Shown here one piece after another: positions 2,900-49,936 of a DNA stretch of 64,000 nucleotides. The number at the start of each line of letters is the position of its first letter. The first letter of the stretch is position 1. Source of the stretch: Candidatus Nomurabacteria bacterium RIFCSPHIGHO2_02_40_30. Its GTDB lineage: Bacteria > Patescibacteriota > Minisyncoccia > Phycocordibacterales > UBA9973. Position numbers and translations under genes: made by a program. The stretch spans positions 95,653 to 159,652 of the forward strand of contig MFTV01000016.1 in assembly GCA_001785445.1 (NCBI GenBank), written 5' to 3'. Under the pieces are notes generated by a model, which saw only the letters and a program-made list of their open reading frames with translations, had not been told where the DNA came from and ran no database searches.

Positions 2900-3171
2900 A
2901 GTTTTTTCTTTGTTTCTAATTTATAAACCCCGGAAGTAGGCAAACAAAAAGCCTGCAGCTAGGTTTAGTAGTCTTTCGACTACAAGTGTCCATTTCTGGC
3001 CACTGCTCGCTAAAGCAAATCCTAACTACAGGTTTTTTATGCTTTAGCGAGACTTATTCACCATGCTTTTATTTCTAAAAGTTTAGGTTACTTTCATATT
3101 AAGTTATTTATCAATAATACAACCTTTATCTAAAGGTAGCAAACCTTATAATTTCTAGCATCGCTGGGGAT

Positions 3172-3675
3172 TTACTCTAAAGCAGTTTCAAGTCCTTTTT
3201 GCGTAATATAGTAAACTGGTTTTTTATGAGACATTTTGGAAATGGAAAGAAATTTTTTCTCCACGAGAGATTTTAAGCTCCTTGTTAAACTAACCTGCCT
3301 CTTATCATAGTCCTCATGCAATTTCATTCTTTCTCTCCTGGAGTTTAATAACTCTTTTGCATCCGGAGATAATGAGTTATTTATTAATCTTATAGTCTCT
3401 TCTTTTGTTTTCTCGTCAATTGTCCCGGAGTTAAACGCTACTTCTGTTTGGGCCATAAGAAGTATTTTTTGCATTATTTCACCAGATTCTTCTTTTTCTG
3501 AGGCATATCGGTAGGGTCTTGGAATCCAATAAATTTTTTCTGTTTTATCTCCAAGACGTCTAGCTATTCTCGCCCTACCAATTCCAAAAAATCTCTTAAT
3601 GTTAAGTTTCCGAGATTCTTCTTTATATATTTCCAAAATTTGCTTTTGTAGTAAAGATAATCTTTCTTTTGCCAT
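3172..3675 (-). CDS. hypothetical basic protein (167 aa)
   Basis: Intact ORF, K/R-rich, possible winged-helix-like C-terminus. No diagnostic motif. Confidence 0.4.
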   Translation of the reverse strand: MAKERLSLLQKQILEIYKEESRKLNIKRFFGIGRARIARRLGDKTEKIYWIPRPYRYASEKEESGEIMQKILLMAQTEVAFNSGTIDEKTKEETIRLINNSLSPDAKELLNSRRERMKLHEDYDKRQVSLTRSLKSLVEKKFLSISKMSHKKPVYYITQKGLETALE

Positions 3676-3968
3676 TTAACATTAAGGATACAGCAAAACC
3701 AACGAAAAACAAGACATTTTCCCTAGATTTTTTGAAAATTTTTAGAGGTCCTTAATTTGAAAAGGCGAAAATATTCCAAACAACCCCTATCACCTTTTTC
3801 ATTTTTGGAGCTATGGACAGGCCTGCATACCTAAACCCCATACAGGCAATAGTAAGGAATTATTGATTCCAACTACCCCCCGAATCACTTATTTTAAATA
3901 CTCAATACCGCACATTAAAACTATTTTAAGTGATAGATGAATCAATATATTTATCTATTTAACCCTAT

Positions 3969-4583
3969 ATGGTCGTACTGGGGCACTTTACTAATTTAAC
4001 TAAAATTATTATGAAAACAACAACTTATAGAAATCACATAGCTTCTCCATTTCAGTTGGCGCCAAAGAAAACATTTACCAAGAAAGATCCGCTTAAAGAA
4101 GAATTGCTAAAGAATACAGGAACATTTAACCTTACCGCTATTATTGAAGAAGATATTCAAACATCATCTCAGTTTAAGCATATTCCTGGATTTTTAGGAT
4201 ATATCTGCACTCTCAAGATAGGTAATGAGGTTATAGGAATTGGTAGAGGTTCGGCAATACTAAATCGCATGAACAAATTTGTCGAACGTGGGATAAGATT
4301 TGCCTATGGCGCATCTATCGTCGATGCTGTCGTTAGGTCCACAAAAACTCTTGATGCTTTGTATCTCAAAACAAGCGGTCAAGAAAATCCTGGGGTACTA
4401 AAAGAAGAAACAGGCGAGATTGATTATACTCCTGAACTAGCTACAGATAAGCAAAAGTCTTATCTCCGAGAACTCATCAATATTAATGTTCTTGACGATA
4501 GAGAAAGAGACCAATGGGCTTCGCAAATTGACGAACTCACGAAAGATGAGGCCTCAGAAAAAATACAGTTTTTCATGAGATAA
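3969..4583 (+). CDS. hypothetical protein (204 aa; start possibly at 4011)
   Basis: Intact ORF with no diagnostic motif. It is followed by a bidirectional hairpin terminator at 4598..4632. Confidence 0.4.
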   Translation: MVVLGHFTNLTKIIMKTTTYRNHIASPFQLAPKKTFTKKDPLKEELLKNTGTFNLTAIIEEDIQTSSQFKHIPGFLGYICTLKIGNEVIGIGRGSAILNRMNKFVERGIRFAYGASIVDAVVRSTKTLDALYLKTSGQENPGVLKEETGEIDYTPELATDKQKSYLRELININVLDDRERDQWASQIDELTKDEASEKIQFFMR

Positions 4584-4597
4584 TAGTTAACATTAAA

Positions 4598-4632
4598 TGG
4601 CGAGGTCATTATTGGCTTCGCCATTTTTTGTT
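4598..4632. terminator. bidirectional rho-independent terminator hairpin between convergent genes
   Basis: aaATGGCGAggtcattattggctTCGCCATtttttg: 7 bp stem with a T-run on one side and an A-run on the other. Confidence 0.5.
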
Positions 4633-4654
4633 TCAACAATGAATCATTAAACAA

Positions 4655-7018
4655 CTAAACTTTTACCTGTACGGCATTTTCAACTAGTTCAATAAGTTGG
4701 CTTGTTTTAAGTAACTCACTTCTTAGTTTTCCTTTGTTTGATATATCTTTAATTGATAAAACTACAGCATAATTTTGGAAAATTGAGTCTTCTGCCATTT
4801 CGTTTAAGAGATGGTTTGAAACTGTCATTTGTATACCAATTTGTAAATCTAAGTAACTAAGTCGTCTAATTTTTTTCTTATAATGAATCGTATTAAAATA
4901 ATTTGATTTATAATTCTCCCAACTGTGAGAAGGAGCCAATGGTTGTACATCCATCTTACCTGTAGGTTTCCCATCTTCCATTTTAGGGAAAACAAGCCCG
5001 ACTGAACCTTGAAGGTTTGTCATTTTATATTCTTTAAAGTTTGTATTAATTGGCGGATTATATACAAGAGTGAAAGTTAGTTCCACATTCCCCCCAAAAA
5101 GATATTCAGGCAATTTTATTATTATTTTTTGTTTTTTTTCTGAAAAATTTATTGCATCTGCGTAAATGATCGTTACCGTATCTTCTGTGTCATCAAACAA
5201 AGCCGGTATATATTCAGCCTTACCGAAACCATATGCTCTCTTTACCATATCATCTTCTATTTTTGCTTGTGTAATTCTTGATGTTGAGTGAATAAGCAAA
5301 GCTTTAACAAGATTTGCTTTGTTTTGATTAAAAAGTGGTATTTGATTAGAAAGGTTTGATTTTTTAAGATAATCAAGAACGAGAGTAGCAGTTCTGGTAA
5401 CTAATGGTGCACTTAGACTTGTACCGGTATCTCTACAAAAAATATTATTTTCCATTACATCAACTCCATACTTATTAGTAGAAGCAATCATGTGAGCTGC
5501 TTCGTATTTATTTGTGGGATCTTTTTCTACATTTCCTCCATATGCAACTAATTCAGGTTTTTTAATATCGTTACGAAAACCTCCTTTTCTAGTAAAAGGA
5601 GAAGGGTAGTCTACCATATCACATATGGTGTCAGCATGATGAACAATTTCAGCAATTGAACCTACTGACAGGGCATTTATGGCATCAGAGGGGGCAGATA
5701 TGTTGCAAGTCTCATCATTAGTGTTGAATATACGGTTATACCCTAATCCGTAGTTTCCATTTTGATTTCCAACAGCAGCTATAAAAAGAATGTCCTTTTT
5801 ACTTGAAATACTATCAATTAACGCTGTGGAATCATCTATATCATTCTTTTCATTTATTGGCTCTTTAGAGGCAATTGAAAGATTGTAAAGAGTAACATCA
5901 AATTTATTAGTTGATTCTTTAATTGCTTTCATTAAGATATCTGTATCTACAGATATTGAACCATCTCTTTTCTTATTTAGAACTTGTACATCAATAATTT
6001 TAGCTACGGGTTCAAGTTTTTCATTCTTAGAGATTTTACTAAAAAAGTTATGCCCAAAAATAAATCTACTAGCAACACTTGTACCATGTTTTTTATCTGC
6101 AGTATCTGAACTTGAAAGATAATTAACTGGGTGAACTACAAAAGGATTAATTAGGGGATTATCTATTCCGCTATCAATAAGTACCACTTTTTCATCTGTA
6201 AGTAACGGCCCTATTTGCACAGAACCAAAACTTGTATTAGGAGTAGACCTTTGTACAATAAATTCTGGGTTAATCTTTATACGAGCAATATAACCATATG
6301 TAGGGTCAGTAAGAAGACTTAAAATATTTTTGATATCAATGTTAGCACGATAAGACATATTACTAATAAAAAATTCTATATCTCTTTTATGCAAATTATC
6401 CGGCCCTATTTTCTTAACTATTTCTTTAAATATGTTTTCATATTCTGATAATTTTCTTTCATAATGTATTGTGATAATGCAATCCAACTTTCCTTTATAG
6501 TCTCCCTTTATAAGTTCCTGAAGTTGCGTTGATATTCTATTTTCTATAGTTTTATTTTTGTCATAAATTTCAGTTACAGCAAAAACTTGACGAGCGATGT
6601 CTTTATTCTTACCACTACCTTGAAATGCATTATCAAATGATGCTAAGCCTGTTATGTTGTTTAATTTTTCAAAATCTTCTGGTAAACCACTTAAGGTAAA
6701 AAATATCTCTCCGTTACGCTCTCTTGTTTCGACAATTTCTAAACCAGCCTCAGCCCACAATTTTGTTGGTTCGCTTGATTTTGAAGATGATCTTTCGTCA
6801 AGTTTTATCTCAGCATAGTATCGTCTGTCAGCTTTATTATATTTTTTTCTAAAGTTATTAATAATACTATCTAGCGCAGAAATACGCTTCTTGTACTGAG
6901 AAGCATAGTAAGTGGGATTAGTTTTAACTTCTTTCTCCCAGTAAGCTTTCCAAAAAGGACCTCCTCCTGTCTTTTTCTCCCTCCTGCTTTTTTCTTTTGG
7001 TACAAGTAATGTATACAT
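4655..7018 (-). CDS. S8 family subtilisin-like serine peptidase with ~270 aa N-terminal domain of unknown function (ietS-like)
   Basis: Subtilase catalytic triad motifs are present in D-H-S order: 'VVLIDSGID', 'KKHGTSVAS' and 'DTGTSLSAPLV'. It lies 1 bp downstream of the AAA ATPase gene. Confidence 0.8.
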   Translation of the reverse strand: MYTLLVPKEKSRREKKTGGGPFWKAYWEKEVKTNPTYYASQYKKRISALDSIINNFRKKYNKADRRYYAEIKLDERSSSKSSEPTKLWAEAGLEIVETRERNGEIFFTLSGLPEDFEKLNNITGLASFDNAFQGSGKNKDIARQVFAVTEIYDKNKTIENRISTQLQELIKGDYKGKLDCIITIHYERKLSEYENIFKEIVKKIGPDNLHKRDIEFFISNMSYRANIDIKNILSLLTDPTYGYIARIKINPEFIVQRSTPNTSFGSVQIGPLLTDEKVVLIDSGIDNPLINPFVVHPVNYLSSSDTADKKHGTSVASRFIFGHNFFSKISKNEKLEPVAKIIDVQVLNKKRDGSISVDTDILMKAIKESTNKFDVTLYNLSIASKEPINEKNDIDDSTALIDSISSKKDILFIAAVGNQNGNYGLGYNRIFNTNDETCNISAPSDAINALSVGSIAEIVHHADTICDMVDYPSPFTRKGGFRNDIKKPELVAYGGNVEKDPTNKYEAAHMIASTNKYGVDVMENNIFCRDTGTSLSAPLVTRTATLVLDYLKKSNLSNQIPLFNQNKANLVKALLIHSTSRITQAKIEDDMVKRAYGFGKAEYIPALFDDTEDTVTIIYADAINFSEKKQKIIIKLPEYLFGGNVELTFTLVYNPPINTNFKEYKMTNLQGSVGLVFPKMEDGKPTGKMDVQPLAPSHSWENYKSNYFNTIHYKKKIRRLSYLDLQIGIQMTVSNHLLNEMAEDSIFQNYAVVLSIKDISNKGKLRSELLKTSQLIELVENAVQVKV

Positions 7019-31567: not shown

Positions 31568-32410
31568 TTAAGCGTTTTGGTAGGGTAATTTATTAAACAA
31601 ACTAAACTCTTGAGAAATTTTCTGTTTCTTAAATCTTATAAAATCAAGCTTATATTTATTTCTAATTTTGCCATCATGTAAAAGTCTGTCATTTATCATC
31701 TTGTAATATTCTGGATGAATTTCGCAGCTGATAAAATTGCGTTTAAGTTTTTTACAAAGTGTTAATTCACTCCCACTACCACCAAATAGTACAAAGACAT
31801 CATCGTTTACTTTAGTGCAGGACTTTATCAGCATTTCAACAAGAGATAGGGGTATTTGGCAAGCATGAAATGTCTTGTCTTTAGAAACATTTTTTACAAG
31901 ATCAAAATAAAACCAGCTGTATGGCATCCTGCCTAAATGCCCAGCTGCAATACGCCCCTTAATTCTTTTATCTTGAGGATTTTGGTATGGTAAAGCCACT
32001 TGTTCTTTATAAAAATTATTATTTTTTGATTTTGTTGCATGTAAAATAGAACGATGCGCAGTTGTAAAACGTCTTGGTGTGTGTCCAACATTAGTATTAT
32101 ACGTCCAAACATAATCTTGAACATTAAAAGCATTGTCATCTAGATACTTTACTCGCAGATGAGCATTTTGCTTGGGGTAATTCATCATAAAAAGATTGCC
32201 GGTTGGTTTCAACACCCTTATGCATTCTTGGGTCAGTTTTATATACCAATCAATGTAATCATCCCACTTTGCTTTGTAATTTTTGCCCGCGTAATTAATC
32301 CCGACATTGTAATCCGGATCGCCATATATCATATCAACCGAATTGTCCGGCATTTTAGCCAATATTTTCATTACATCATCATTGAATACTTTGTTTTTGA
32401 ATTTTTCCAT
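31568..32410 (-). CDS. beta-class DNA methyltransferase (N6-adenine or N4-cytosine), type II R-M
   Basis: Motif IV 'GDPDYN' near the N-terminus and motif I 'VLFGGSGS' near the C-terminus (beta permutation). Confidence 0.8.
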   Translation of the reverse strand: MEKFKNKVFNDDVMKILAKMPDNSVDMIYGDPDYNVGINYAGKNYKAKWDDYIDWYIKLTQECIRVLKPTGNLFMMNYPKQNAHLRVKYLDDNAFNVQDYVWTYNTNVGHTPRRFTTAHRSILHATKSKNNNFYKEQVALPYQNPQDKRIKGRIAAGHLGRMPYSWFYFDLVKNVSKDKTFHACQIPLSLVEMLIKSCTKVNDDVFVLFGGSGSELTLCKKLKRNFISCEIHPEYYKMINDRLLHDGKIRNKYKLDFIRFKKQKISQEFSLFNKLPYQNA

Positions 32411-32417
32411 AATTTTT

Positions 32418-33251
32418 CTAATTACTCTGAGTAATTAACTTATATTCGGCAGATTTTATAAAAACAATCGATGTTATGTCTAGTGGTTTCTTAAATGTAT
32501 ATGCCCACAATTTCAGTAAATCGCCACCTTTGGATTTTTCTCTCAGAACATAAACGCAAAATATATTCTTAATTTTTCCTTTTAATTCAGTCTTTCGGTT
32601 GGCATTGAAATAATATAAAAACGGATGATATAGTTGATAAATAGAAAAATTCTCAGGTCTACCATTCTTGCCTTCAAATATACCAATAATGCCCTGAAAT
32701 TCAATCGTAAGATCAATTTCAATCTGTATTGAATCAAGTTGGAGTTTTATTCCCTTTCCAACAAAATATTCGAGACTAGTTTTGGTTCTATGTGGAAAAT
32801 AAGTTTTCGGACGTTTTTCAATATCTATATCTTCAAATTCTCTATCTTGGTTAAAAATAAAATGATGTAAAATTCTTTGATTGTTTGCCACTGAAAGTAT
32901 ATTACTTTCACTCGAATTATATTGATTGAGCAAGCTTTTCTTATATTTCCAATCTATCTTTTTTTGAATTGGCTCAAATTTATGAAAAACCTTATCTATG
33001 CCTTTGATAAATTGATGTTTCCCTTGTCCTTTGTGAAGGATGGCGTAATTATTTTTTATCAAAATTTCAGGAAATTTTTTTATATTATCAAGTTTAGTAA
33101 CATCAAATGGATTACCAAACCCAACCTTTTTACAAATATTTTTAACTAAATCATTGTGAAAAATATAGTTATTTTTTCTTCTGCAAACTCGAAAAAGTTC
33201 TGTTATTACTTGGTTTTTCTTACCTATTTTCATATTCTTATTATATATCAT
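32418..33251 (-). CDS. putative type II restriction endonuclease (cognate to adjacent methyltransferase)
   Basis: Unrecognisable 277 aa protein, 7 bp upstream of the MTase on the same strand. Assigned by context only. Confidence 0.4.
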   Translation of the reverse strand: MIYNKNMKIGKKNQVITELFRVCRRKNNYIFHNDLVKNICKKVGFGNPFDVTKLDNIKKFPEILIKNNYAILHKGQGKHQFIKGIDKVFHKFEPIQKKIDWKYKKSLLNQYNSSESNILSVANNQRILHHFIFNQDREFEDIDIEKRPKTYFPHRTKTSLEYFVGKGIKLQLDSIQIEIDLTIEFQGIIGIFEGKNGRPENFSIYQLYHPFLYYFNANRKTELKGKIKNIFCVYVLREKSKGGDLLKLWAYTFKKPLDITSIVFIKSAEYKLITQSN

Positions 33252-38185: not shown

Positions 38186-39976
38186 CTATAAAACAAATGT
38201 CTTAGGAAAATACATTAGAGGGTTTAATTTGATTATCTGTTGTCTTCTTTCCGTTTCAGAAATCGTCTTTAAGTCTAGTATAAGTGGGAATGACTCTTTT
38301 TGTTCTTGTGAAACTCCGTTAACTAAACTAATGTTTGTTGTCTTCGTATAACTGGGGAACCTGAAAACAACATTAACATAATCCTCTTTTGCATAGAGGG
38401 TAATTCGTTCAATGAATAGAAATACGATTTTTTGCTTTTCTTCATACGAAACATTTTCTAGTCTATTTTTTATTTGTTCGTATACTTTTTTAAGAGACAC
38501 CTCTCTTTCTTCTTTTTCTTTTTTAGTAGTAGACAACTGGTGTAAATGTATCGTTTCATCCTTGAGTTTTTGTTCGTCATTTTTATATTGACTAACATAC
38601 ATTTCATATTGTTTTTTAGAAATCTGTCCATTCACATAAAGTTCATTGGCTCTGTCTCTCTTTTCACTGATTGAAGATGACTCAGTTTCAATTTCTGTTA
38701 ATCGTATTTTAGTTAACTTGGGGTTTTCTGTTTTATAGATGTATTGTTTTAACGGATGAAACATATTTTGTGGATTTTTGAGTATTTCTTTTAAACAATA
38801 CCAGATGGGTTCTAATCTTGCCTCAGAGTATTGAGGACACCACTCACATCTTTTTGTAGTGCCAACAGCGTCATCTTTTCTATAAATACCATGATAGTAT
38901 CTTCCATTACCGTGCTCCCAGTTTTTTCGTGGGGGTTGAAACCCACTAAACATCTTATAATTGCATTTACCACAATAGATAAGTTTTGAATACAAATACT
39001 CTCGTTTCTGATTTCTTTTTGAAAATTCCCTATTTCTCATTAGTTGTTGTTTTGCGAGTTCAAAAGTTTCTGGTGAAATAACCACGGGTGTTTCTATTTG
39101 TACCCAGTCTTCTTTTGGTCTCAATTTATTTTTATCTGTTATACTTGTAAGATTGTTAAAAGGTCTCTTGTATTTTCTATAATAGAAAACTCCAGTATAA
39201 ACTTCGTTAGTTAAAATTCTTCCTATCGTTCGTTTATACCAATAGTTGTTAGTGGTTCGTTTTTTGACTTTAGTAAAATACGGAGTGGGTATTTTCATTT
39301 GGTTCATTCTTCTCTCTAATTCATTTAGAGACAATCTTTCGTCAATGAGCCATTTAAAAAGTTTCTGAACTATTTTTACTTCTTCTGGAACAAGAAGAAG
39401 TTTTTTTGTTTTTTTGTCAACTTTAAAACCAAAAGGAGGCACACCAGTCACCCACTTTCCTGCTTTAGCGGCACATAATTTTCCATTTGATGTCCTTTCT
39501 CTGATAGTTTCTCTTTCCATTTCTGCGACAGCTCCTAAAAGAGTAGTCATAAATTTTCCTGTACTACTTGTAGTATCAAATGCTTCAGTTGTTGAACGGA
39601 AACCAACATTATAATTTCCAAGAAGTTCAATGGCTCCCAGTAATAATGTGGTCTTTCTAAAAAATCTATCTAATCTATAAACAAGAACAACATCAAACTC
39701 CTTGTTTTGTGCGTCAGTAAATAATTGTTTTAGTTGTGGTCTAGAATCAACGGGTAAAGTACCAGAAAAACCTTCTTCAGAATAGATGTGTTTTTCTTCT
39801 AAAGAATAATCTTGAGACTGGACAAAGGCGAGTAGTTTTTCTTTTTGTACTTCAAGTCCGTATCCTGAAATTTGTTCCCCTGTCGATACTCGGAGATACA
39901 AGGCGACTCTTATTTTATTTTTTGTTTCAGTTTCCATTTTCATAATTCTTTTGACGACAGAGTTTAAAGAGTTCAT
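38186..39976 (-). CDS. large serine recombinase (probable start ~39943/39937)
   Basis: Resolvase-type N-terminal catalytic domain 'IRVALYLRVSTGEQ' with catalytic Ser. Large recombinase C-terminal domain with Cys-rich zinc ribbon (CGKCNYKM...C..C). Confidence 0.9.
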   Translation of the reverse strand: MNSLNSVVKRIMKMETETKNKIRVALYLRVSTGEQISGYGLEVQKEKLLAFVQSQDYSLEEKHIYSEEGFSGTLPVDSRPQLKQLFTDAQNKEFDVVLVYRLDRFFRKTTLLLGAIELLGNYNVGFRSTTEAFDTTSSTGKFMTTLLGAVAEMERETIRERTSNGKLCAAKAGKWVTGVPPFGFKVDKKTKKLLLVPEEVKIVQKLFKWLIDERLSLNELERRMNQMKIPTPYFTKVKKRTTNNYWYKRTIGRILTNEVYTGVFYYRKYKRPFNNLTSITDKNKLRPKEDWVQIETPVVISPETFELAKQQLMRNREFSKRNQKREYLYSKLIYCGKCNYKMFSGFQPPRKNWEHGNGRYYHGIYRKDDAVGTTKRCEWCPQYSEARLEPIWYCLKEILKNPQNMFHPLKQYIYKTENPKLTKIRLTEIETESSSISEKRDRANELYVNGQISKKQYEMYVSQYKNDEQKLKDETIHLHQLSTTKKEKEEREVSLKKVYEQIKNRLENVSYEEKQKIVFLFIERITLYAKEDYVNVVFRFPSYTKTTNISLVNGVSQEQKESFPLILDLKTISETERRQQIIKLNPLMYFPKTFVL

Positions 39977-40313: not shown

Positions 40314-42170
40314 TTATTCAAAAAGGTGTTCCATCTCTTCATCCTCTTCGTCTATTTTTACGATTTCTTCATCGATTTCAATAGTAGATTTTGTAATGGA
40401 CTCTTTTGGTGTTGTTAATTTTTCGTCCTCTCTGGGGAGTCTGTAAATGTTTCTCTTTCCTGACTTGTCGACCACTATCTTTTTCTCTTTTGTTAGTTCT
40501 TTAAGTGCATCTACAACATTCCTCCCACCTGCTTGTGCTTTTACTGCTTCTTGTAATGCTTCCTTTATGTGTGGACCATCCTCCAGTACGATTAAGATAG
40601 CCATTTTTGCATTTTCTTTTTTGCTTTTTTCCTCTTCAATTTCTTGATAATCCCCTAAAGATACTTTTCCGTCTACTTCAATCAACTTCACACTAAAGGG
40701 GTCAGCTGCTTTACTTCGTCTTGACTTCACATGCTCAATTTCCATAATAAACGCTTTTGTATTTTTTTTATCTTTTTTAACTGTTATGTGTGAATCTAAT
40801 CTTCCTGAAATAGCAGACGAACCACGAAGACTTTGTGCTCCTTTTGGTTGTCCGATTCCATCTTTTCTGTGGTGATGGATAAATAAAACAGAAGCACCTA
40901 CTTTATTTATTTCTTGCATAGCTTGCATAATCTGTTCTGCTTGTTCAGCACTATTTTCTTCTTTTGAATGTAGTGCTGCGAATGGGTCAAACATAACCAA
41001 AGAAATATTGTTTTGTTGAACTATGTTTTTAAGTTGGTCTAAGTCTTTTCTATTATCAATTTTGAAGTGTTGAAGAATACTAAACATAATTGGTAAATCT
41101 TTTTTGAATGACATTCTTTCTATTCGTCTTTTTGTCTCACCCTCACCTGACTCTTCATCAACAAGAAGTATTTTTCCAGTCATAGTTTCAAAATGGTCAA
41201 ATACTTTTTTACCTGATGCTATTGCTTTAGCAATATGCAACATTACCCAACTTTTTCCATGACTTGGTTGTCCTGAAAGAGCAATAATGCCTTGCCTTGG
41301 GATAAGTGGATTGACTAAAAATTCCTGTTCTTTGGTCTCTAGTTTTAAAACATCACTAACAGAAAGTATTTTTATCAATCGTTGTTCCGTGTTTTCGGGT
41401 TCTTTCCCATCTTTTCTTTGTTTTCTTTGAGATTCTGCAAGACTCTCGAAAACTTCAAATAAGTGTTTGTCTTCTAATGGTGGATTGTTGTTTTTGTTCC
41501 ATGACTGGACTAACGGGAAACAAAAAGTAAACCAATCCTTTTCTGAATATTGGTATAACAATTTTCCAGAAATTCGAGTTAAAACATCATGACGAGAACC
41601 TGTCTCAACTCCACTAAATAGAACATCCCATTTTTGGTCTGACTGGTTGTGATTTTGAGTTGTCTTTTTTTCGTCAAGAACCATCCACTTTGGAACTTCA
41701 GCAAGGGGTAGTTTGTCTAAATCAATTTCCCATTCGTAATGATTCCCAGATAGATGAAGAGATGGGGGGACAACTATGTATCCCCCATCACCTCTAATAT
41801 CTATTTTACGACCCAAAATACGAGTGGCATTTTTTATACCAGTCTCAGGATATTTGAAGTAGAAATGTTTCCCTCCCCCTCCAGATTTCACAGTCGGGGT
41901 GTTTGGTATCTCTAATCCAGTTGTATCTCCGTCATGTTCAACATCTAAAACAACTATCCCAGAAATTTTTCCTGTCACTAATGCAATACCATCTGGGATA
42001 TTGTTCTTAAACCATGATTCTATTTCTTCTTTACTGGCTTGTCTTTCTTGATACTCTTTCCAAGACGACAAGAGTGGTGTTTTGTCTCTTTTGATGGGGA
42101 TAACAGAGAGCCCCTTTTCTTGAAGTCGGAGAGCGGCCTGAAGTAGAACACTTCTTTTTTTTGTTTGCAT
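40314..42170 (-). CDS. bifunctional primase-polymerase (Prim-Pol) N-terminal domain fused to RecA-like/DnaB-like helicase (AAA_25-type) replication protein
   Basis: N-terminal 'GLSVIPIK...GIALVTGKISGIVVLDVEHDGD...GGGGKHFYFKY...DIRGDGGYIVVPPS' is a prim-pol signature. Central P-loop 'LSGQPSHGKSW' and 'ILLVDEESGEG' are also present. Confidence 0.75.
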   Translation of the reverse strand: MQTKKRSVLLQAALRLQEKGLSVIPIKRDKTPLLSSWKEYQERQASKEEIESWFKNNIPDGIALVTGKISGIVVLDVEHDGDTTGLEIPNTPTVKSGGGGKHFYFKYPETGIKNATRILGRKIDIRGDGGYIVVPPSLHLSGNHYEWEIDLDKLPLAEVPKWMVLDEKKTTQNHNQSDQKWDVLFSGVETGSRHDVLTRISGKLLYQYSEKDWFTFCFPLVQSWNKNNNPPLEDKHLFEVFESLAESQRKQRKDGKEPENTEQRLIKILSVSDVLKLETKEQEFLVNPLIPRQGIIALSGQPSHGKSWVMLHIAKAIASGKKVFDHFETMTGKILLVDEESGEGETKRRIERMSFKKDLPIMFSILQHFKIDNRKDLDQLKNIVQQNNISLVMFDPFAALHSKEENSAEQAEQIMQAMQEINKVGASVLFIHHHRKDGIGQPKGAQSLRGSSAISGRLDSHITVKKDKKNTKAFIMEIEHVKSRRSKAADPFSVKLIEVDGKVSLGDYQEIEEEKSKKENAKMAILIVLEDGPHIKEALQEAVKAQAGGRNVVDALKELTKEKKIVVDKSGKRNIYRLPREDEKLTTPKESITKSTIEIDEEIVKIDEEDEEMEHLFE

Positions 42171-43308: not shown

Positions 43309-44295
43309 TCAAGGAATTAAATAGACCGAGTACTCTAATTGCCTTCTTGCATCTACATCTCCTGGTTGAACACAATTAAAATCATCCTGATTATCAATTC
43401 CAATCGTGACGATATGAACCCCTGTTGAACTATTACTCACATCGAGAGTGAAAGTATTCTCAAGTGAAAAGACCTTCCAACCAGACTCACTAGACCAGTC
43501 GGCTGGTGTATCATGTGTAAAGTAGACAGGAAGTCCTTGTGGGTCAGTAGCTGTTATCTCTAATGTGATAGAGTTAACTGTCCCCTTAGCGAAACCGCCT
43601 CTAATGCCAAAACCTTGAAACGGATAATTGCCAACATTGCCAAGACTATCTTTAATCATAGTAATCTTTGGACAATGAAGTTCTTTGTAAGTTAATGGGG
43701 GCGTAGGTGTTGGAGTTGGAGTCTGTCTTTTTCTAGTTATAATTGCAGGAGGAGTAATTGGAGTTATGCTTGGTATAACAAGAATTGTGTCGTTGCATGA
43801 CTTACCAGTTATTGAACTAAACTTATTGCCTGAATCACACCCTGCATTTACTGGAAGTACCTGACTTGAAGTTGAATTATCAATAATAACAGGCGGTGCA
43901 GTACATGGTCCCACTATTGGGCATGGTCCCACCATAACTCCAGGACTTGCTCCACCACCTGCGCTACTGGAGGGGGTAGTCAATGTTGTTGGTTTTGTTG
44001 GAGTGATTTGTTTTGATGTAGACTTAGTGTCCTGTTTTTCTTTTTTGAGTACAACTTTTTCTTTTTCAACTTTTTTATCATTAACGGAGTTAGTAGTTGG
44101 AACAGAAACTTGAACTACTGGAGGTTGAACAACTTGTTTTTTAAACCATGAAAACGGATTCCACCAAGAAGCAAAAGCAATAGAGGGAGTTAAAAATACT
44201 ATTAAAAGTAGACACAAGGAATATCTTTTCATAAAATTATTTAAGACAAAAATTGCTAATAATTCCATGAATGGGAAACAAAAAGCCCACCACAT
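43309..44295 (-). CDS. secreted protein with 'ASWWNPFSWF' post-signal motif (paralogue of 994..2535); likely start at ~44232 (MKRYSL...)
   Basis: 'MKRYSLCLLLIVFLTPSIAFASWWNPFSWFKK' is a signal peptide plus the same motif. It is followed by a P/T/S-rich linker and a C-terminal globular domain. Confidence 0.6.
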   Translation of the reverse strand: MWWAFCFPFMELLAIFVLNNFMKRYSLCLLLIVFLTPSIAFASWWNPFSWFKKQVVQPPVVQVSVPTTNSVNDKKVEKEKVVLKKEKQDTKSTSKQITPTKPTTLTTPSSSAGGGASPGVMVGPCPIVGPCTAPPVIIDNSTSSQVLPVNAGCDSGNKFSSITGKSCNDTILVIPSITPITPPAIITRKRQTPTPTPTPPLTYKELHCPKITMIKDSLGNVGNYPFQGFGIRGGFAKGTVNSITLEITATDPQGLPVYFTHDTPADWSSESGWKVFSLENTFTLDVSNSSTGVHIVTIGIDNQDDFNCVQPGDVDARRQLEYSVYLIP

Positions 44296-44490
44296 GGGTA
44301 GAGACCGAAGTCTCTCATATTAGTTTCCTAATATGGCCTGACGGACACCCCATATGATGGGTTCTTTATGTCCGTCAGGACTCTTTCACCATGCTATTGA
44401 AAAATCAATAGTTTAGGCTACTTTTAAAATATTCAGTTGTATCTATATAGTATTACTTGTCTAAAGAAATGTAAAATAAAGAGGTCATAA

Positions 44491-45309
44491 CTACATGATA
44501 AGAGTTGATAATTCCTTTGCATTATTGAGTGGTAATGATAGATATAATGCCTTTTCTGATTTGCCTGCTTGTACCATCTTTTTTAATGTAAAGTTTTGCG
44601 AGAAGAAGTTTTTATCAATATATCCAACTATGTATGCTTTTCGAGTTGATATATCAATATAAATTCTTACATAAAAAAAACGCATATTGATTTGCTCTTC
44701 ATTGCGCATTTTTAATATACACTCAGAATTAGATAAACAATTAAAACTCCTGTATGTTTTACAAAAATTTATATAGTCCATCAAATTGTTTATTTTATCA
44801 AATTCATCTACACGGAGATATTTAGGGTACTCAAGAAAATCATCACTCATGATAATACTAGAGATGTTCTGGTCACTGCTTCCTGTTCTTTTGTGCCGCT
44901 CTGCAACTCTTGTAGATTTTATTTCAACCGTATAAATACCATTACTTTCAAGACCAATTTTTGTCCCATCACTTATCTTCCCATAGTCACTATTTTTAAC
45001 CTCATAATTGATTTGTTCTATATATTTATTAACTATTGATTGGTCTTTATTTGATACGAATATTATTCCATCAAAAGGAGCATGCTTTTCAAAATTATTA
45101 GACCTAAACTCATCATACGATAAGTATTTATAATTCGGAAAATTCTGAATTATAAATTCCTTAAACACTTTTTCAGCAATTTTACCTAGTGATGTATCTG
45201 AAGCTTTTTCTTCGTTAGAACGACCTAGTTGCCATGTATTTGCTGTGTTTTCAACAATCTTTTTGAAACTACCAGAATTGTTAATTGTTATATCATTAAT
45301 TATTATCAT
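44491..45309 (-). CDS. hypothetical protein co-transcribed with type III res; possible PD-(D/E)xK fold
   Basis: Overlaps the res stop by 4 nt. 'PFDGIIF...YEVKNS / VEIKST' weakly resembles a PD-ExK nuclease core. Confidence 0.4.
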   Translation of the reverse strand: MIIINDITINNSGSFKKIVENTANTWQLGRSNEEKASDTSLGKIAEKVFKEFIIQNFPNYKYLSYDEFRSNNFEKHAPFDGIIFVSNKDQSIVNKYIEQINYEVKNSDYGKISDGTKIGLESNGIYTVEIKSTRVAERHKRTGSSDQNISSIIMSDDFLEYPKYLRVDEFDKINNLMDYINFCKTYRSFNCLSNSECILKMRNEEQINMRFFYVRIYIDISTRKAYIVGYIDKNFFSQNFTLKKMVQAGKSEKALYLSLPLNNAKELSTLIM

Positions 45310-47849
45310 TGCTTTTTCAATTCTTCAAATAATCTTACCTGCTCACGCTGGAGTGAAGCATTGAAAATGATATGATATTCAAAGTTTTTATTTATACTCT
45401 TAAAATCAGAGAAGCCGATTTCTTTTGCTAGTATTTCGTTTGTGAGATTTTCCATTTTGCCTTTGTATGATTTTTTATTTGCTTCATAGTCAGCTTGTTC
45501 GTCTCCTCCTTTCGTTTCAATCACTAAAAAACGTTCCTTTGATGTTTCAATGAGAAAATCTGGAAAGTATCGCCCCATACGCTTTTGCTCTGGACTCCAA
45601 TATTCAAAGTAAAAATCGGTTCGGCTCGGGTCTGCACAAACACGAGCTCCTGTAAAATATATATCTTTGATAGTTTCTTTTTTTTCAAGCACACTTCTCA
45701 AGTATCGAAATAAATCCTTTTCATCACTACTATCAAAAGCATACGGATTGATGTGAAAACCGATACGACCCTTTCGTCCTTCTTCTGCTTCAGTTTCTTT
45801 GTATACTACTAGAGTATTTCTACCCTGTTGAACACTAATTTTAAACGGAAAGAGTTTTGTAAGTTCAAGTTCTTCTTCTACAATCTCAGTCTTTTCTTCA
45901 TACTTGTAAGCACTTTTTAGGATTTCTTGTACTATAAATGGAACGAGGGCGAAATTCTCATTTGTCATTTTTACAAACTCATCCCGTTTCTTGCTACTAG
46001 AAATAATACTACTAATCACAATACACGATAGGTGTGTATAGCGATTGATAATTTCTACTATCTCGTAGAAAGTAAAATCGTTTTTGTCTTCTATTTTTCG
46101 GACTGCTCTAACTTCACTGTATCCAGCATTTCCCTCATCACCAAGAAAGATACCCCCCTCACTGACAAATGACTGGTATCGCTCTGGCTTGAACTTCTTA
46201 AAATCTACTTTTATGTTCTCTGCGTTCGCCTCCTGTACTGCTAAAATCTCTTTAAGCACCTTCTTAACTTTGATGGTCTTTCGTTTCTCAACTTCTAGTG
46301 TATGTTCTACCATTTTCTGGTCTTGTGTATTCAACTCGCTTATGCTGGAAGCAAAGTTATTCTTAAGTTCTTTATCAAGTATTTTGTAATTTTCCTTTGA
46401 AAGAAAGATGTGAGCACGAGTAGAATTGTCACCAATAGCACGGAGACATCTTGTTGTGGATTGAAGCACAAGGATAGTGCTTTTTGGCTTTTTATACAGA
46501 GCAACTGAAACAAGCGAACGACAATTCCATCCTTCAGTTCCTTTACCTACGAGCAGTACAAATCGCTTTTTGCTTTCTGCTGTATCAAGCTGTCTAAAAT
46601 CATTAATGTTTTCTTCTGCTCGTGTGTGATATTCCAGAATAGTGCTTGGCGAGATATTTCTCTCTGTGAGAATACGCTCCAGTTTTGGCTTCAAGTCAGT
46701 TTGTAAATCATTAATGTTTGATGCGTAAAAAGCAATCTTCGGCAATCGTCCTTCAAGTCTCTTCTTGTCATACTCAGCAATAAAAGTATCAATGACTTCT
46801 TCAAGAAATTTTTGTGACCGCACTATACCATAATCTAAGATGCGAACCTGTTTCAAAATTCCTTTCTCTATACCTTGCTTAAGACCGAAGTGATACACTA
46901 CATCAGAAATCATCTTATTGTTTACATAGGGAGTTCCTGTGAGGTTCACTACAGATATAAGTGGTGTGTGCTTGTGTAAATAATCAATCGTTTGACGTGT
47001 TTTCTTCAAAGTTCCTTCAAGAGTTTTGCCATATGAATGATGGGCTTCGTCCACAAAAATTTGAAGTGAACCAAGTTGTCGTATGGCTTGCAATCGCATA
47101 TTCTCAACCTCTCGTTTCCCGAGCTCATTCTTATCGCCAAAAAGACGCTTTGTGGCATTGTTTTCGTCCCCATTTCTTGTCTTCAAAATTATCTTCTGTG
47201 AGTTGGAAACAATGACATTATAGTTCCCATTTGGAGCTAGAGGAGTGTCAGTACTTTCAAGGTAATGGTATTTTATATTCAAAATGATATTCTCGTATTC
47301 TTTCGGAAGCACTCGTGAGTAGTCAAAAGTCTTGATTTCTTTCAAGCTCTCAATGATGGTTGTATCAGGAGCAAAGACTAGAGCATTTTTCGCAAAACGT
47401 TCGTCATCATTGTGATAGAACGAAAGCACAAAATCATAGAGCATCATCACGGCCATCAAAATTGTTTTACCCGAACCCATTGTGAGAGCATAGACCTGAT
47501 TTGCATAATCCGAAGTCCCGAACTTATCATCAAGAATTAGCTGTATTTTTTCATCTTTTTTCTTATCGTAGGCAAGCTCAAACGCTTCTTTGTCAGAAAT
47601 ACCCAGAGCACGGATGAGTTCAATTTCATTTTCAAATGATTGTCGGAACACTTCCACTGACGGCTTGTTGCCTACTACTTCTTTGAGGTAGATATAAGTT
47701 TCCAATGCTTCAATCTGTGGCTCGTGCAAAAAAGCTACTCGCTTGATGTGAGTGAGAATGTTCTCCGTCTCTTTGTACACGCTTTTATATCCATCAGCAC
47801 GCCAGAGAGCTACTTGTTTTTGTATGTTTTGAAGAAAAAAACTATCCAT
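45306..47849 (-). CDS. res: type III restriction enzyme Res subunit (SF2 helicase + C-terminal PD-(D/E)xK endonuclease)
   Basis: Walker A 'LTMGSGKTIL', DEAH 'IFVDEAHHS', motif VI-like 'VGKGTEGWNCRS' and C-terminal 'FPDFLIE...LVIETKG'. Confidence 0.8.
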   Translation of the reverse strand: MDSFFLQNIQKQVALWRADGYKSVYKETENILTHIKRVAFLHEPQIEALETYIYLKEVVGNKPSVEVFRQSFENEIELIRALGISDKEAFELAYDKKKDEKIQLILDDKFGTSDYANQVYALTMGSGKTILMAVMMLYDFVLSFYHNDDERFAKNALVFAPDTTIIESLKEIKTFDYSRVLPKEYENIILNIKYHYLESTDTPLAPNGNYNVIVSNSQKIILKTRNGDENNATKRLFGDKNELGKREVENMRLQAIRQLGSLQIFVDEAHHSYGKTLEGTLKKTRQTIDYLHKHTPLISVVNLTGTPYVNNKMISDVVYHFGLKQGIEKGILKQVRILDYGIVRSQKFLEEVIDTFIAEYDKKRLEGRLPKIAFYASNINDLQTDLKPKLERILTERNISPSTILEYHTRAEENINDFRQLDTAESKKRFVLLVGKGTEGWNCRSLVSVALYKKPKSTILVLQSTTRCLRAIGDNSTRAHIFLSKENYKILDKELKNNFASSISELNTQDQKMVEHTLEVEKRKTIKVKKVLKEILAVQEANAENIKVDFKKFKPERYQSFVSEGGIFLGDEGNAGYSEVRAVRKIEDKNDFTFYEIVEIINRYTHLSCIVISSIISSSKKRDEFVKMTNENFALVPFIVQEILKSAYKYEEKTEIVEEELELTKLFPFKISVQQGRNTLVVYKETEAEEGRKGRIGFHINPYAFDSSDEKDLFRYLRSVLEKKETIKDIYFTGARVCADPSRTDFYFEYWSPEQKRMGRYFPDFLIETSKERFLVIETKGGDEQADYEANKKSYKGKMENLTNEILAKEIGFSDFKSINKNFEYHIIFNASLQREQVRLFEELKKQ

Positions 47850-47854
47850 AATTT

Positions 47855-49846
47855 TTACGCATTTACTTCAAATGTCTCAAAGTATTCTTCCCCAAGCACA
47901 TCTACAATCTTGATTGCGACAGTGTATTTACCTTTCTTTTGGTACTCCCACGAATACTTGGCTTTAATAATTTCTTTCTTGTCTGGCAGGTCTATCACTT
48001 CAGCATTAAATAATTTGCTGTTATAATCCACGTCAATAGCAACACTATCAATGATTTGCTTGAAGTCATTAACTTTTGTTTTATGCTCTTTCTTGAGTAC
48101 CTTCTCGTTTTCAATCTCTAGCTTTCGCATTAGTATAGGAGAATAAAAATCATTGAGCTCAACAGTAAGCTTTTTATCTTTCACTTTCATTTCAATTTTC
48201 GCTTCTGGTTTTTTCTTAAAGATAAGGTTTTTCTTATCAGTCAAAATATCTCTAACTTCAATTTTAACACCCGTCTTGTTTTCCTTCTTAATAAAATCCA
48301 TTACATCAAGTTCCATTCCTGAACAAACAACGAGTACTCCTTCTTCGTAAACTGCATCTCTTGCTTTTGATTTTATCTTCACAGTAAAGCTATCTAGTTT
48401 ATCTCCTATACTCTTGAGCATTGTGCGAATGTCCATCTTGTTTAAAACTCGATTAAGAGACATTATCTTAACAAAGTTCTTGTCTAAAACACCATCAAAG
48501 TAAATTCGCTTTACTGGTTCTATCCCATACATCTCCATCACGATTTCTTTTGCCTCAAGCTCGTTTTTAAACACATCATAATCGTTCACATTGAGTATTT
48601 TGAAACCAAGTGAACCTTTAAAGTTCTTTGTTTTTTCTTTTTGCTGGTCTGTAATAATTTGACCGAGCCGTTTTGTGCTTGTTTGTATTGCCCCTATGTT
48701 AATATCGCACCCTATCCATCGTCGTCCGAGCTTCTGTGCAACAGCACAAGTAGTACCAGAGCCGAGAAAGAAATCCGCAACAAGGTCTTTCTCATCTGAG
48801 GATGCTTCTATTACTCTTTTGAGTAAAGCTTCAGTTTTTTGTGTCGGATAACCTGTATCTTGACCTGGAGTCGTACCAAGTCCTGCTATATCTTCCCATA
48901 TATTATCCACGGCTCGTTCTGCAATATATTTACTCCCCTTCTTTTTTAGATAATACTTCACACCAACACTACCACCATTACTACAAGAAACTGTTTTCGT
49001 CTCTTCATTAAAAACAACTTTACCACCAAAAGGCGCATATAGACGTCCTTCTTTATGAAGTTTTTTCAGTGTCTCAAAGCCAGAAGAACCTGGGTCAGAG
49101 GAATGGAAATACCCTCCCTCATCTTTCCTATACTCACTCGCCGCTTCTTCTTCCGTTAGCTTTGTTTCTTTCTTTTGAGAATGCCAAGTCGTTGGATACT
49201 TTTTATTTTTTGCATAGATGTTTAAAAAATGTGTACTATAAGCATAATAAAAAGCATTGACCTTTGCCCCACGAGCAACCTGACTTCTCCATGAGATAGT
49301 ATTTAAATAGCTGTCCTCACCAAAAACATCATCTAATAAAAGTCGTATATGATGTTCTTTTCTATGGTCGCAGTGAACATATATTACCCCCTTTTCCGAA
49401 AGAAGTTCTTTCATAAGAAGGATGCGCTCATACATAAACTGCAAGAACTCGTCATTTGCCCAAATGTCGGAATATTGTTTTTCTTCTAGCAAGCCTTGTT
49501 GTATACCCTCTATTTTCTCCCCTCGTATTTTCACACGCCTCACATACTCTGCTTCACTAGCAAATGGAGGGTCAATGTATATCAAATCAACCTTACCACG
49601 ATAGTTCTTTAAAAGGTGAGAAAGGACTTGGAGATTATCCCCCCAAAATAGTTTGTTGAAATCCTCTGCACTCTTATCGCCATACACCTCAGTTTCTTGT
49701 GCAGGATAAAATTGTACACCCTCAAGGGGTTTTTTACCTACCCACTGGAGAAGCGGACGACCTTTTGCTTGTTCTACTTTTTGATACTGTTGTTCTTTTT
49801 GATTTTTCATAACATTTTTTTCACTCTTACATTCCATAAATAGCAT
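47855..49846 (-). CDS. mod: type III R-M Mod subunit (beta-class N6-adenine DNA methyltransferase)
   Basis: Motif IV 'DLIYIDPPF' precedes motif I 'DFFLGSGTTCAVA'. Lies 5 bp upstream of res. Confidence 0.8.
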   Translation of the reverse strand: MLFMECKSEKNVMKNQKEQQYQKVEQAKGRPLLQWVGKKPLEGVQFYPAQETEVYGDKSAEDFNKLFWGDNLQVLSHLLKNYRGKVDLIYIDPPFASEAEYVRRVKIRGEKIEGIQQGLLEEKQYSDIWANDEFLQFMYERILLMKELLSEKGVIYVHCDHRKEHHIRLLLDDVFGEDSYLNTISWRSQVARGAKVNAFYYAYSTHFLNIYAKNKKYPTTWHSQKKETKLTEEEAASEYRKDEGGYFHSSDPGSSGFETLKKLHKEGRLYAPFGGKVVFNEETKTVSCSNGGSVGVKYYLKKKGSKYIAERAVDNIWEDIAGLGTTPGQDTGYPTQKTEALLKRVIEASSDEKDLVADFFLGSGTTCAVAQKLGRRWIGCDINIGAIQTSTKRLGQIITDQQKEKTKNFKGSLGFKILNVNDYDVFKNELEAKEIVMEMYGIEPVKRIYFDGVLDKNFVKIMSLNRVLNKMDIRTMLKSIGDKLDSFTVKIKSKARDAVYEEGVLVVCSGMELDVMDFIKKENKTGVKIEVRDILTDKKNLIFKKKPEAKIEMKVKDKKLTVELNDFYSPILMRKLEIENEKVLKKEHKTKVNDFKQIIDSVAIDVDYNSKLFNAEVIDLPDKKEIIKAKYSWEYQKKGKYTVAIKIVDVLGEEYFETFEVNA

Positions 49847-49936
49847 TGTAAGAAATTGATAATGGCTTCCGTTATTCCTAGTATTCAGTATATTATAGTT
49901 TCAAGTATTTATACATATTTCCATATTAAGCTTCTA

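Follow-up and report, generated by a model that had tools for sequence, protein, structure and literature searches.

Why should a type III restriction–modification (R-M) operon carry a third gene, translationally coupled to the second? The question is raised by a locus in a 64,000-nt stretch of contig MFTV01000016.1 from Candidatus Nomurabacteria bacterium RIFCSPHIGHO2_02_40_30, here called the window, in which mod, res and a third open reading frame (ORF3) lie head to tail on the minus strand. Type III systems are defined as two-gene mod-res units, and the operon departs from this definition, as a coupled third gene follows res. An earlier, sequence-only reading had described a type III mod-res pair with a coupled extra gene and had guessed that this gene plays an accessory role. 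The description has held, and the third gene was found to recur near mod and res in other genomes. The guess has not: no evidence points to a specificity subunit or to an anti-restriction sensor. The interpretation favoured here, to which a probability of about 50% is assigned, is that one Mod serves two restriction nucleases and that ORF3 is the second of them, a type II-like enzyme restrained by Mod methylation. It is favoured because ORF3 has an intact active site, because it forms pairs with methylases where Res is missing, because a gene resembling that of a controller protein precedes it in one clade, and because it co-occurs with one target-recognition domain (TRD) of Mod.

Operon layout and the type III core

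The junctions of the operon proved to be as first described, with a gap of five nucleotides between mod and res and a four-nucleotide overlap of res and ORF3 (Table 1). A promoter scan gave matches in the window no better than those in shuffled sequences.

Mod matches PF01555 in Pfam (2.5e-42) and MTase_III in PADLOC (6e-62), and the closest solved structure is that of EcoP15I Mod (4zcf, E = 4e-20). Motif IV lies ahead of the S-adenosylmethionine (SAM)-binding motif I, the order on which the assignment to the beta class had been based. Mod is accordingly annotated as a predicted type III beta-class N6-adenine methyltransferase with a central TRD (about residues 183–328). Because its relatives begin (MKN) at the residue equivalent to M13 of the window protein, the true start of mod is probably nt 49810 and not nt 49846.

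Res matches PF04851 and has more than 4,700 homologues, which carry the source names type III restriction enzyme or restriction endonuclease subunit R. The family is very large and comes mostly from the candidate phyla radiation (CPR), with over 100 clusters at 66–96% identity to the window Res. Searches against PDB sequences and the PADLOC Res models gave no match. The superfamily 2 (SF2) helicase motifs and the C-terminal PD...ExK motif attributed to Res are all present, and all are kept in relatives. By these signatures mod and res form an ordinary type III system of an already known kind. Cleavage by type III enzymes is ATP-dependent and requires two unmethylated sites in inverse orientation, and methylation is confined to one strand.

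Table 1. Coordinates of the operon, its motifs and neighbouring features in the window.
Feature	Position (nt)	Strand	Remarks
mod	47855-49846	minus	663 aa as longest ORF; likely true start nt 49810 (M13)
res	45306-47849	minus	847 aa; SF2 helicase and C-terminal PD-(D/E)xK nuclease
ORF3	44491-45309	minus	272 aa; stand-alone PD-(D/E)xK nuclease (predicted), unclassified family
mod-res spacer, 5 nt (AAATT)	47850-47854	minus	between mod stop TAA and res ATG
ATGA overlap	45306-45309	minus	common to res stop TGA and ORF3 start ATG; also breakpoint of homology to ORF3-less relatives
Mod motif IV, DPPF	49562-49573	minus	read from sequence, aa 92
Mod motif I, FLGSGT (SAM binding)	48752-48769	minus	read from sequence, aa 360
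Swapped TRD cassette in mod	48862-49300	minus	Mod aa ~183-328; between motif VIII and motif X/I
Res Walker A, GSGKT	47463-47477	minus	aa 125-129
Res DEAH box	47040-47051	minus	aa 267-270
Res nuclease motif, P763-D764...E778-x-K780	45510-45563	minus	conserved in window, P0284, P0320, L021, L080, L067
ORF3 catalytic D80, HAPFD motif	45070-45072	minus	invariant in 61 sequences; head of strand 81-85
ORF3 catalytic E129-x-K131, VEIKST motif	44917-44925	minus	invariant in 61 sequences; within strand 126-134
Perfect 11-nt inverted repeat, CCTGACGGACA / TGTCCGTCAGG	44337-44379		21-nt loop; strand not assigned; spacer between ORF3 and next gene
Next gene after ORF3	43309-44295	minus	328-aa protein; N-terminal hydrophobic segment, Thr/Pro-rich linker
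Replication protein gene	40314-42170	minus	PrimPol + AAA_25 + PriCT; downstream of ORF3
Large serine recombinase gene	38186-39976	minus	downstream of ORF3
DUF6996/DUF6997 gene	32418-33251	minus	277 aa; just upstream of the N6_N4 methylase gene
N6_N4 methylase gene	31568-32410	minus	280 aa; unusual motif IV, DPDY

ORF3 belongs to a new family of predicted nucleases

The ORF3 protein is 100% identical to "hypothetical protein A2W67_00895", and "hypothetical protein" is currently the only annotation of the family. A word-indexed search returned 63 homologues, down to E = 4e-24, and a profile search of 1.84 billion proteins returned 229 representatives at 50% identity. ORF3 is therefore a real gene and no chance reading frame, and its family is rare. 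Full-length members are nearly all stand-alone proteins of about 260–410 aa (the longest listed has 492 aa), and none of the 229 representatives was seen fused to a methylase or to Res. The window protein gave no match in Pfam, PADLOC, NCBIfam, PHROGs or the PDB sequences. Likewise, 61 members searched against Pfam hit no consistent family, and the ORF3 profile found nothing in the PDB.

An alignment of 61 sequences contains 22 invariant positions. The PD-(D/E)xK pattern had been noticed from the sequence alone and called weak; its presence is borne out, its weakness is not, as D80 and E129-x-K131 do not vary in any of the 61 homologues. K43 and E46, on the first long helix, and H76, in the HAPFD motif, are also invariant. 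Conservation is concentrated in the core strands, an N-terminal NTxNTWQ motif, a DDFLEYP..LR block and a C-terminal GKSE, with the helices at 86–125 and 170–210 being variable.

The AlphaFold (AF2) model of ORF3 is confident (predicted local distance difference test, pLDDT, 93.6; predicted template modelling score, pTM, 0.90). It consists of one nuclease domain with a restriction-endonuclease-like alpha/beta core, and no nucleoside triphosphatase (NTPase) motif or sensor domain is present. The invariant NTxNTWQ motif lies in the least confident part (block pLDDT 67). The list of structural neighbours contains, with values in brackets, D212 (7.2), the N-domain of Eco15I (6.8), I-Ssp6803I (6.8), Hjc (6.4), NhoI (6.4), DpnI (6.2), MspI (5.8) and SwaI (5.3), and a Foldseek search with the model matched viral "restriction endonuclease" models. 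As modelled, ORF3 has a divergent PD-(D/E)xK nuclease fold with an intact active site, and sequence comparison places it in a family of its own, new within the PD-(D/E)xK superfamily.

A deep clade of homologues (L043, L029, L037 and related loci; L numbers denote loci) encodes proteins of 350–379 aa with a C-terminal extension of about 90 aa, for which no match was found in Pfam. In the L043 group, an 89-aa ORF with weak winged-helix similarity overlaps the start of the ORF3 gene.

ORF3 is mostly accompanied by adenine methyltransferases

The genomic company of ORF3 was examined in 4 genome loci and 62 metagenome loci, to which 14 contexts of specific homologues were added. ORFs in the fetched loci were called with a simple longest-ORF script, and methylases and Res proteins were labelled by iterative phmmer searches from Pfam-verified seeds. 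Clustering of ORF3 at 70% identity, with retention of clusters having at least two genes on each side, left 26 informative clusters; for short contigs, the context classes that follow are incomplete. A PF01555 methylase together with a ResIII helicase-nuclease, the type III arrangement, was found in 10 clusters, a small PF01555 methylase only in 7, and a large Mod with Res further along in one (L003). Three clusters have an Eco57I-type methylase with a ResIII/T5orf172 helicase and two have Res only, and the remaining three have no methylase or Res-type gene nearby. An adenine methyltransferase thus lies within three genes of ORF3 in 21 of the 26 clusters, and it is a PF01555 enzyme in 18 of these and of Eco57I type in the other three. 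All 29 distinct PF01555 partners examined have DPPY or DPPF, and motif I follows motif IV in each of the 21 in which it could be located, which is the order of beta-class N6-methyladenine (m6A) enzymes.

Where all three genes are present, their order varies, and within type III operons ORF3 is found at every position. Mod-Res-ORF3 is seen in the window, L001, L002, L013–15, L037 and L073, and ORF3-Mod-Res in L029, L032, L036, L039, L043, L051, L058, L061, L069 and others. The remaining orders were each found in a single locus: Mod-ORF3-Res in L067, where ORF3 overlaps mod by 4 nt, ORF3-Res-Mod in L021, Res-ORF3-Mod in L018, and Res-x-Mod-ORF3 in L080. The Mod and Res families linked to ORF3 are mutually very distant; between the window and L002, for example, Mod identity is 22%, and alignment of the Res proteins is confined to the nuclease motif. 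Within clades, ORF3, Mod and Res co-diverge. The hosts comprise Patescibacteria, Arcobacter cryaerophilus, Ruminobacter, Clostridiales and human-gut bacteria.

Replacement of a dead Res nuclease by ORF3 was considered and rejected, as the nuclease motif of Res is intact in the window and in the ORF3-linked relatives. ORF3 is also found independent of Res. In the seven clusters that have a small methylase and no Res, it overlaps or abuts this methylase, a protein of 247–270 aa that aligns end to end with M.MboIIA or M.RsrI. That the small methylases are truncated Mods was considered and dismissed in view of the end-to-end alignments and because they match Mod only around the catalytic motifs. 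The eight small methylases form a single family with 60–89% identity, while their ORF3 partners are only 35–71% identical, and the two sets of identities are correlated (r = 0.83). To judge from these comparisons, the pairs bear the signature of orthodox type II R-M systems, whose nucleases evolve faster than their methylases. Moreover, in L003/L020 the start of ORF3 shares 4 nt with the gene for a 71-aa Cro/C1-type helix-turn-helix (HTH) protein (PF13443, 1.3e-17), an arrangement like that of a controller (C) protein preceding a toxic R gene. ORF3 is a separate polypeptide that lacks an NTPase domain, and members of its family mostly lie close to a methyltransferase, as is the rule for type II enzymes.

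ORF3 is often part of a defence island, with genes for GmrSD, Mrr, a UvrD-nuclease or an SNF2 helicase as neighbours. Together with the translational coupling of ORF3 to R-M operons in many gene orders, this frequency is compatible with a guard role, to which the anti-restriction sensing proposed in the earlier reading corresponds: ORF3 would be a PrrC-like abortive-infection effector, kept silent by the R-M complex until a phage anti-restriction protein disables Mod or Res, and would then destroy nucleic acid non-specifically. Nevertheless, ORF3 is a single nuclease domain with no sensor or NTPase domain, shares no sequence similarity with PrrC or RloC, and has no PADLOC or NCBIfam match. Pairs with a plain small methylase would offer no complex restriction machine to guard, and a guard model does not predict the coupling to a particular TRD described below. 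A guard function is regarded as highly improbable.

Some neighbours of ORF3 deserve mention in their own right. Integrases or recombinases adjoin many of the loci, among them L003, L067, L069, L073 and L077. In Arcobacter cryaerophilus (CP128652, L069, 3067–12822), the genes for an SNF2 helicase (1089 aa), a DUF4391 protein (223 aa), ORF3, Mod (628 aa) and Res (1028 aa) form a string in which the first three overlap by 4 nt at each junction, a short gap separates ORF3 from Mod, and Mod and Res overlap by 1 nt; this Res carries an RE_endonuc domain. A DUF4391 fragment also precedes ORF3 in L032, and no paper on the function of DUF4391 was found in the literature. In the human-gut loci L038, L039, L062, L051, L065, L061 and L033, a fusion of a UvrD helicase with a PDDEXK_1/Cas4-like nuclease (about 900–980 aa) adjoins a long-form ORF3. 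It lies upstream in most of these loci, with a 4-nt overlap in L038, L039 and L062, and downstream in L033. The solitary ORF3 homologue of L078 is situated in a phage-like stretch, where neighbouring genes match Acb1, DarA_C, PTS_2-RNA (Tpt1-type) and RNase T.

A recent addition to the operon and an exchanged TRD

Conservation of the third gene next to res was found to depend on distance. It is missing from the three close relatives examined, L081, L082 and L083, whose Res proteins are 89%, 85% and 74% identical to that of the window, and no remnant of it was detected in their six-frame translations by hmmsearch at maximum sensitivity; in more distant operons it does stand beside res. L082 and L083 are plain two-gene mod-res operons, and L081 has res with a decayed mod. 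In the latter (3100–5000), mod is split into several small ORFs with DNA homology persisting, and Res is intact, so that res has apparently outlived its mod.

The DNA of the window cassette is 79–81% identical to that of L081/L082 and 70% identical to that of L083. Homology to L081/L082 runs from about nt 49873 to nt 45302–45307, ending exactly at the res stop codon. The GC content of ORF3 is 28.7%, compared with 36.7% for mod and 37.1% for res. The absence of ORF3 from the relatives, the point at which homology stops and the lower GC content suggest that ORF3 is a recent graft at the 3' end of a two-gene cassette that was already in place. The spread of identities points the same way: only two other ORF3 clusters are more than 80% identical to that of the window, and none lies between 55% and 82%, where Res has more than 100 clusters at 66–96%.

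Homology to L081/L082 is broken at a single place, nt 48862–49300 within mod, which corresponds to the TRD. Apart from the added ORF3, the replaced TRD is the sole difference between the window operon and these 79–81% identical relatives. The window TRD is 0–30% identical, with large gaps, to the Mods of L082 and L083, in contrast to 43–59% identity to those of the ORF3-linked loci L021, L080, L011 and L018. Outside the TRD, these four Mods are far more diverged from that of the window (8–40% for L080). All three genes are visible in the window, L021, L080 and L018, in four different orders, and L011 shows only ORF3-Mod. The TRD is normally the least conserved part of a type III Mod; among the ORF3-linked Mods that share the window TRD it is the best conserved part. 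Its conservation there hints that the methylation specificity of these Mods has been selected to suit ORF3.

The same evidence of recent arrival could mean that ORF3 is unrelated to mod and res. The genes for a serine recombinase and a PrimPol replication protein lie just downstream on the same strand, so an integrative element abuts or carries the R-M unit, and ORF3 might be a hitch-hiker at its edge, or else an independent type IV or selfish nuclease. Its absence from close relatives, its lower GC content and the break in homology exactly at the res stop would be explained by such an origin. Solitary copies exist, and the structural neighbours NhoI, Eco15I and DpnI are modification-dependent enzymes. 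Coupling to an active adenine methylase would, however, make a nuclease that depends on methylation self-destructive. In addition, the presence of a methylase close to ORF3 in 21 of 26 clusters, often with 4-nt overlaps, goes far beyond island-level clustering, the family of small-methylase partners is conserved, and the triad recurs in different gene orders with the same TRD. No ORF3 homologues were found in IMG/VR or in a plasmid collection, and a phage collection gave one weak match. An origin unconnected with mod and res is thus distinctly unlikely.

How ORF3 might act

If ORF3 is a second endonuclease, Mod and Res would act as an ordinary type III enzyme, with Mod marking sites and Res restricting as a motor-nuclease. 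ORF3, co-translated with Res after being grafted onto the 3' end of the cassette, would be a stand-alone Mg-dependent, ATP-independent endonuclease without need of the helicase of Res. It would cut, like a type II enzyme, DNA that lacks the N6-methyladenine mark, and the mark set by Mod would keep it off host DNA, the TRD of Mod having been swapped to match ORF3. This scheme predicts DNA cleavage by ORF3, its block by Mod methylation and its sequence specificity.

Several observations weigh against the scheme. The sites of type III Mods are asymmetric and normally carry methylation on one strand, so that replication yields one daughter duplex with no methylation at the site; the host should then be at risk from a nuclease that acts on single sites and has such a Mod as its only safeguard. 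Solitary ORF3 homologues with no methylase nearby (L023–26, L055, L078) are unusual for a lethal type II enzyme, and in three clusters the partner is a gamma-class Eco57I-type methylase. The loci that share the window TRD were found through ORF3, and the link between TRD and ORF3 was ascertained in that way. A word-index search of a large protein database with the 161-aa TRD segment returned 10 fragments only and missed the Mod of the window itself; in viral, plasmid and phage collections the window TRD is absent. Furthermore, the window ORF3 is closer to ORF3 proteins with other methylases (53% identity for L067, 52% for L069 and about 50% for small-methylase loci) than to those of the same-TRD loci (39–45%), so that nuclease and TRD do not share a one-to-one phylogeny. 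The ORF3 tree (neighbour-joining, unsupported at depth) likewise does not mirror the TRD type.

Some of these observations would be accommodated if ORF3 had no DNA specificity of its own and were a nuclease subunit that docks on a methyltransferase, the Mod dimer in the window and a small methylase elsewhere. ORF3 would then be a helicase-less "mini-Res", a second cutting head. A methylase, whatever its type, is the constant neighbour of ORF3, and the solitary copies suggest that the protein may be harmless alone. The NTxNTWQ motif, invariant yet placed in the low-confidence part of the model, would fit an interaction motif, and the one TRD that co-occurs with ORF3 could be the docking surface. 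Nevertheless, the partners are very unlike each other, ranging from MboIIA/RsrI-like proteins of 250 aa through Mods of 570–680 aa from several families with unrelated TRDs to gamma-class Eco57I-type enzymes, and a docking surface shared by all is hard to see. The resemblance of the small-methylase pairs to ordinary type II systems and the lack of fusions to a methylase or to Res also speak against docking, which is considered doubtful.

The second-endonuclease reading can be extended to a broader claim, namely that an R-M architecture has gone unrecognised in which one type III Mod serves both Res and a separate type II-like or Mod-directed PD-(D/E)xK cutter, with a matched TRD holding the pairing and with the three genes arranged in several ways in hosts from Patescibacteria, Campylobacterota, Bacillota and Proteobacteria. 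This is put forward tentatively, as possible at somewhat less than even odds. Most of the data are covered by a mundane reading, in which a type II enzyme has settled next to a methylase that happens to suit it.

Surroundings of the operon and word avoidance

The spacer downstream of ORF3 contains a perfect inverted repeat (Table 1) that is not followed by a T-run. It may form a transcript-end hairpin, and its membership of the operon is uncertain. No family was matched by the 328-aa product of the next gene, which is probably secreted or located at the cell surface. Further along, the N6_N4 methylase and the DUF6996/DUF6997 protein encoded beside it form a candidate second R-M pair. This methylase was also considered as the cognate enzyme of ORF3 and rejected, being only 27% identical to the family of ORF3 partners and paired with the DUF6996/6997 gene.

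Avoided words were examined for traces of a recognition site. The window contains 42 copies of GATC where 142 are expected, a 3.4-fold depletion (z about -10), and GATC is the most avoided palindromic tetramer across the ORF3 loci. Since CPR relatives without ORF3 (L081–L083) are depleted equally or more, with observed/expected ratios of 0.07–0.24, the avoidance is not attributable to ORF3. Four small-methylase loci (L008, L009, L012 and L030) have no GATC in 35 kb, and they also lack CCGG and GGCC. A recognition site was therefore not derived from word avoidance.

Significance

Should ORF3 be a methylation-sensitive nuclease guarded by Mod, it would found a new restriction-enzyme family, and the operon would be a hybrid of types II and III. 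With the extra nuclease, cutting of single sites without ATP would become possible for a type III system, closing the known escape of phages whose sites all point one way, and the question would arise of how a one-strand methylase can be a safe guard for two nucleases. A Mod TRD and a separate nuclease gene seem to have been selected together; this rule can be checked computationally and could predict cognate specificities, and new stand-alone restriction nucleases have value as reagents. Were ORF3 to dock on methylases, it would represent a minimal, motor-less analogue of Res.

Comparison with known systems

A literature search on type III R-M systems with a third gene found no description of a system of this kind. 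The operon shares with EcoP15I and EcoP1I a mod gene directly upstream of res, a beta-class m6A Mod with a central TRD, a Res composed of an SF2 helicase and a C-terminal PD-(D/E)xK nuclease, and closest relatives that are two-gene operons. It differs from them in its third, translationally coupled, stand-alone nuclease and in a Mod TRD that seems to track ORF3 rather than the Mod backbone, and its Res family is remote from EcoP15I Res.

An extra nuclease gene inside a restriction operon is also known from type I loci with PrrC or RloC. PrrC, which belongs to the type I locus EcoprrI, acts on tRNA as an anticodon nuclease linked to an ABC-ATPase, whereas ORF3 has a single-domain DNA-nuclease fold and also occurs with plain small methylases. 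CglI and NgoAVII are, like the present operon, three-gene systems in which a small nuclease is encoded apart from the methylase and from a helicase-like NTPase protein. In those systems the methylase is a C5 enzyme, R is a phospholipase D (PLD) nuclease with a B3 DNA-binding domain and N is a helicase-like ATPase without nuclease. By contrast, the methylase of the window is an N6-adenine enzyme, and Res keeps an intact PD-(D/E)xK motif, giving two nucleases.

Orthodox type II pairs with methyltransferases of the MboIIA, RsrI or DpnA type are matched by the ORF3 homologues that form overlapping M-then-R units with a 247–270-aa beta-class m6A methylase, both in the faster divergence of the nuclease and in the C-protein-like HTH ahead of it in one clade. 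Unlike such pairs, the window has no small methylase adjoining ORF3, and no restriction-enzyme family described in Pfam or the PDB was matched by ORF3. AhdI (type IIH) is alike in logic: its type II nuclease uses a type I-like M+S methylase, with no second nuclease, so that a type II-style enzyme is protected by a methyltransferase borrowed from another R-M type. In the window, the corresponding methylase is a type III Mod that keeps its own Res.

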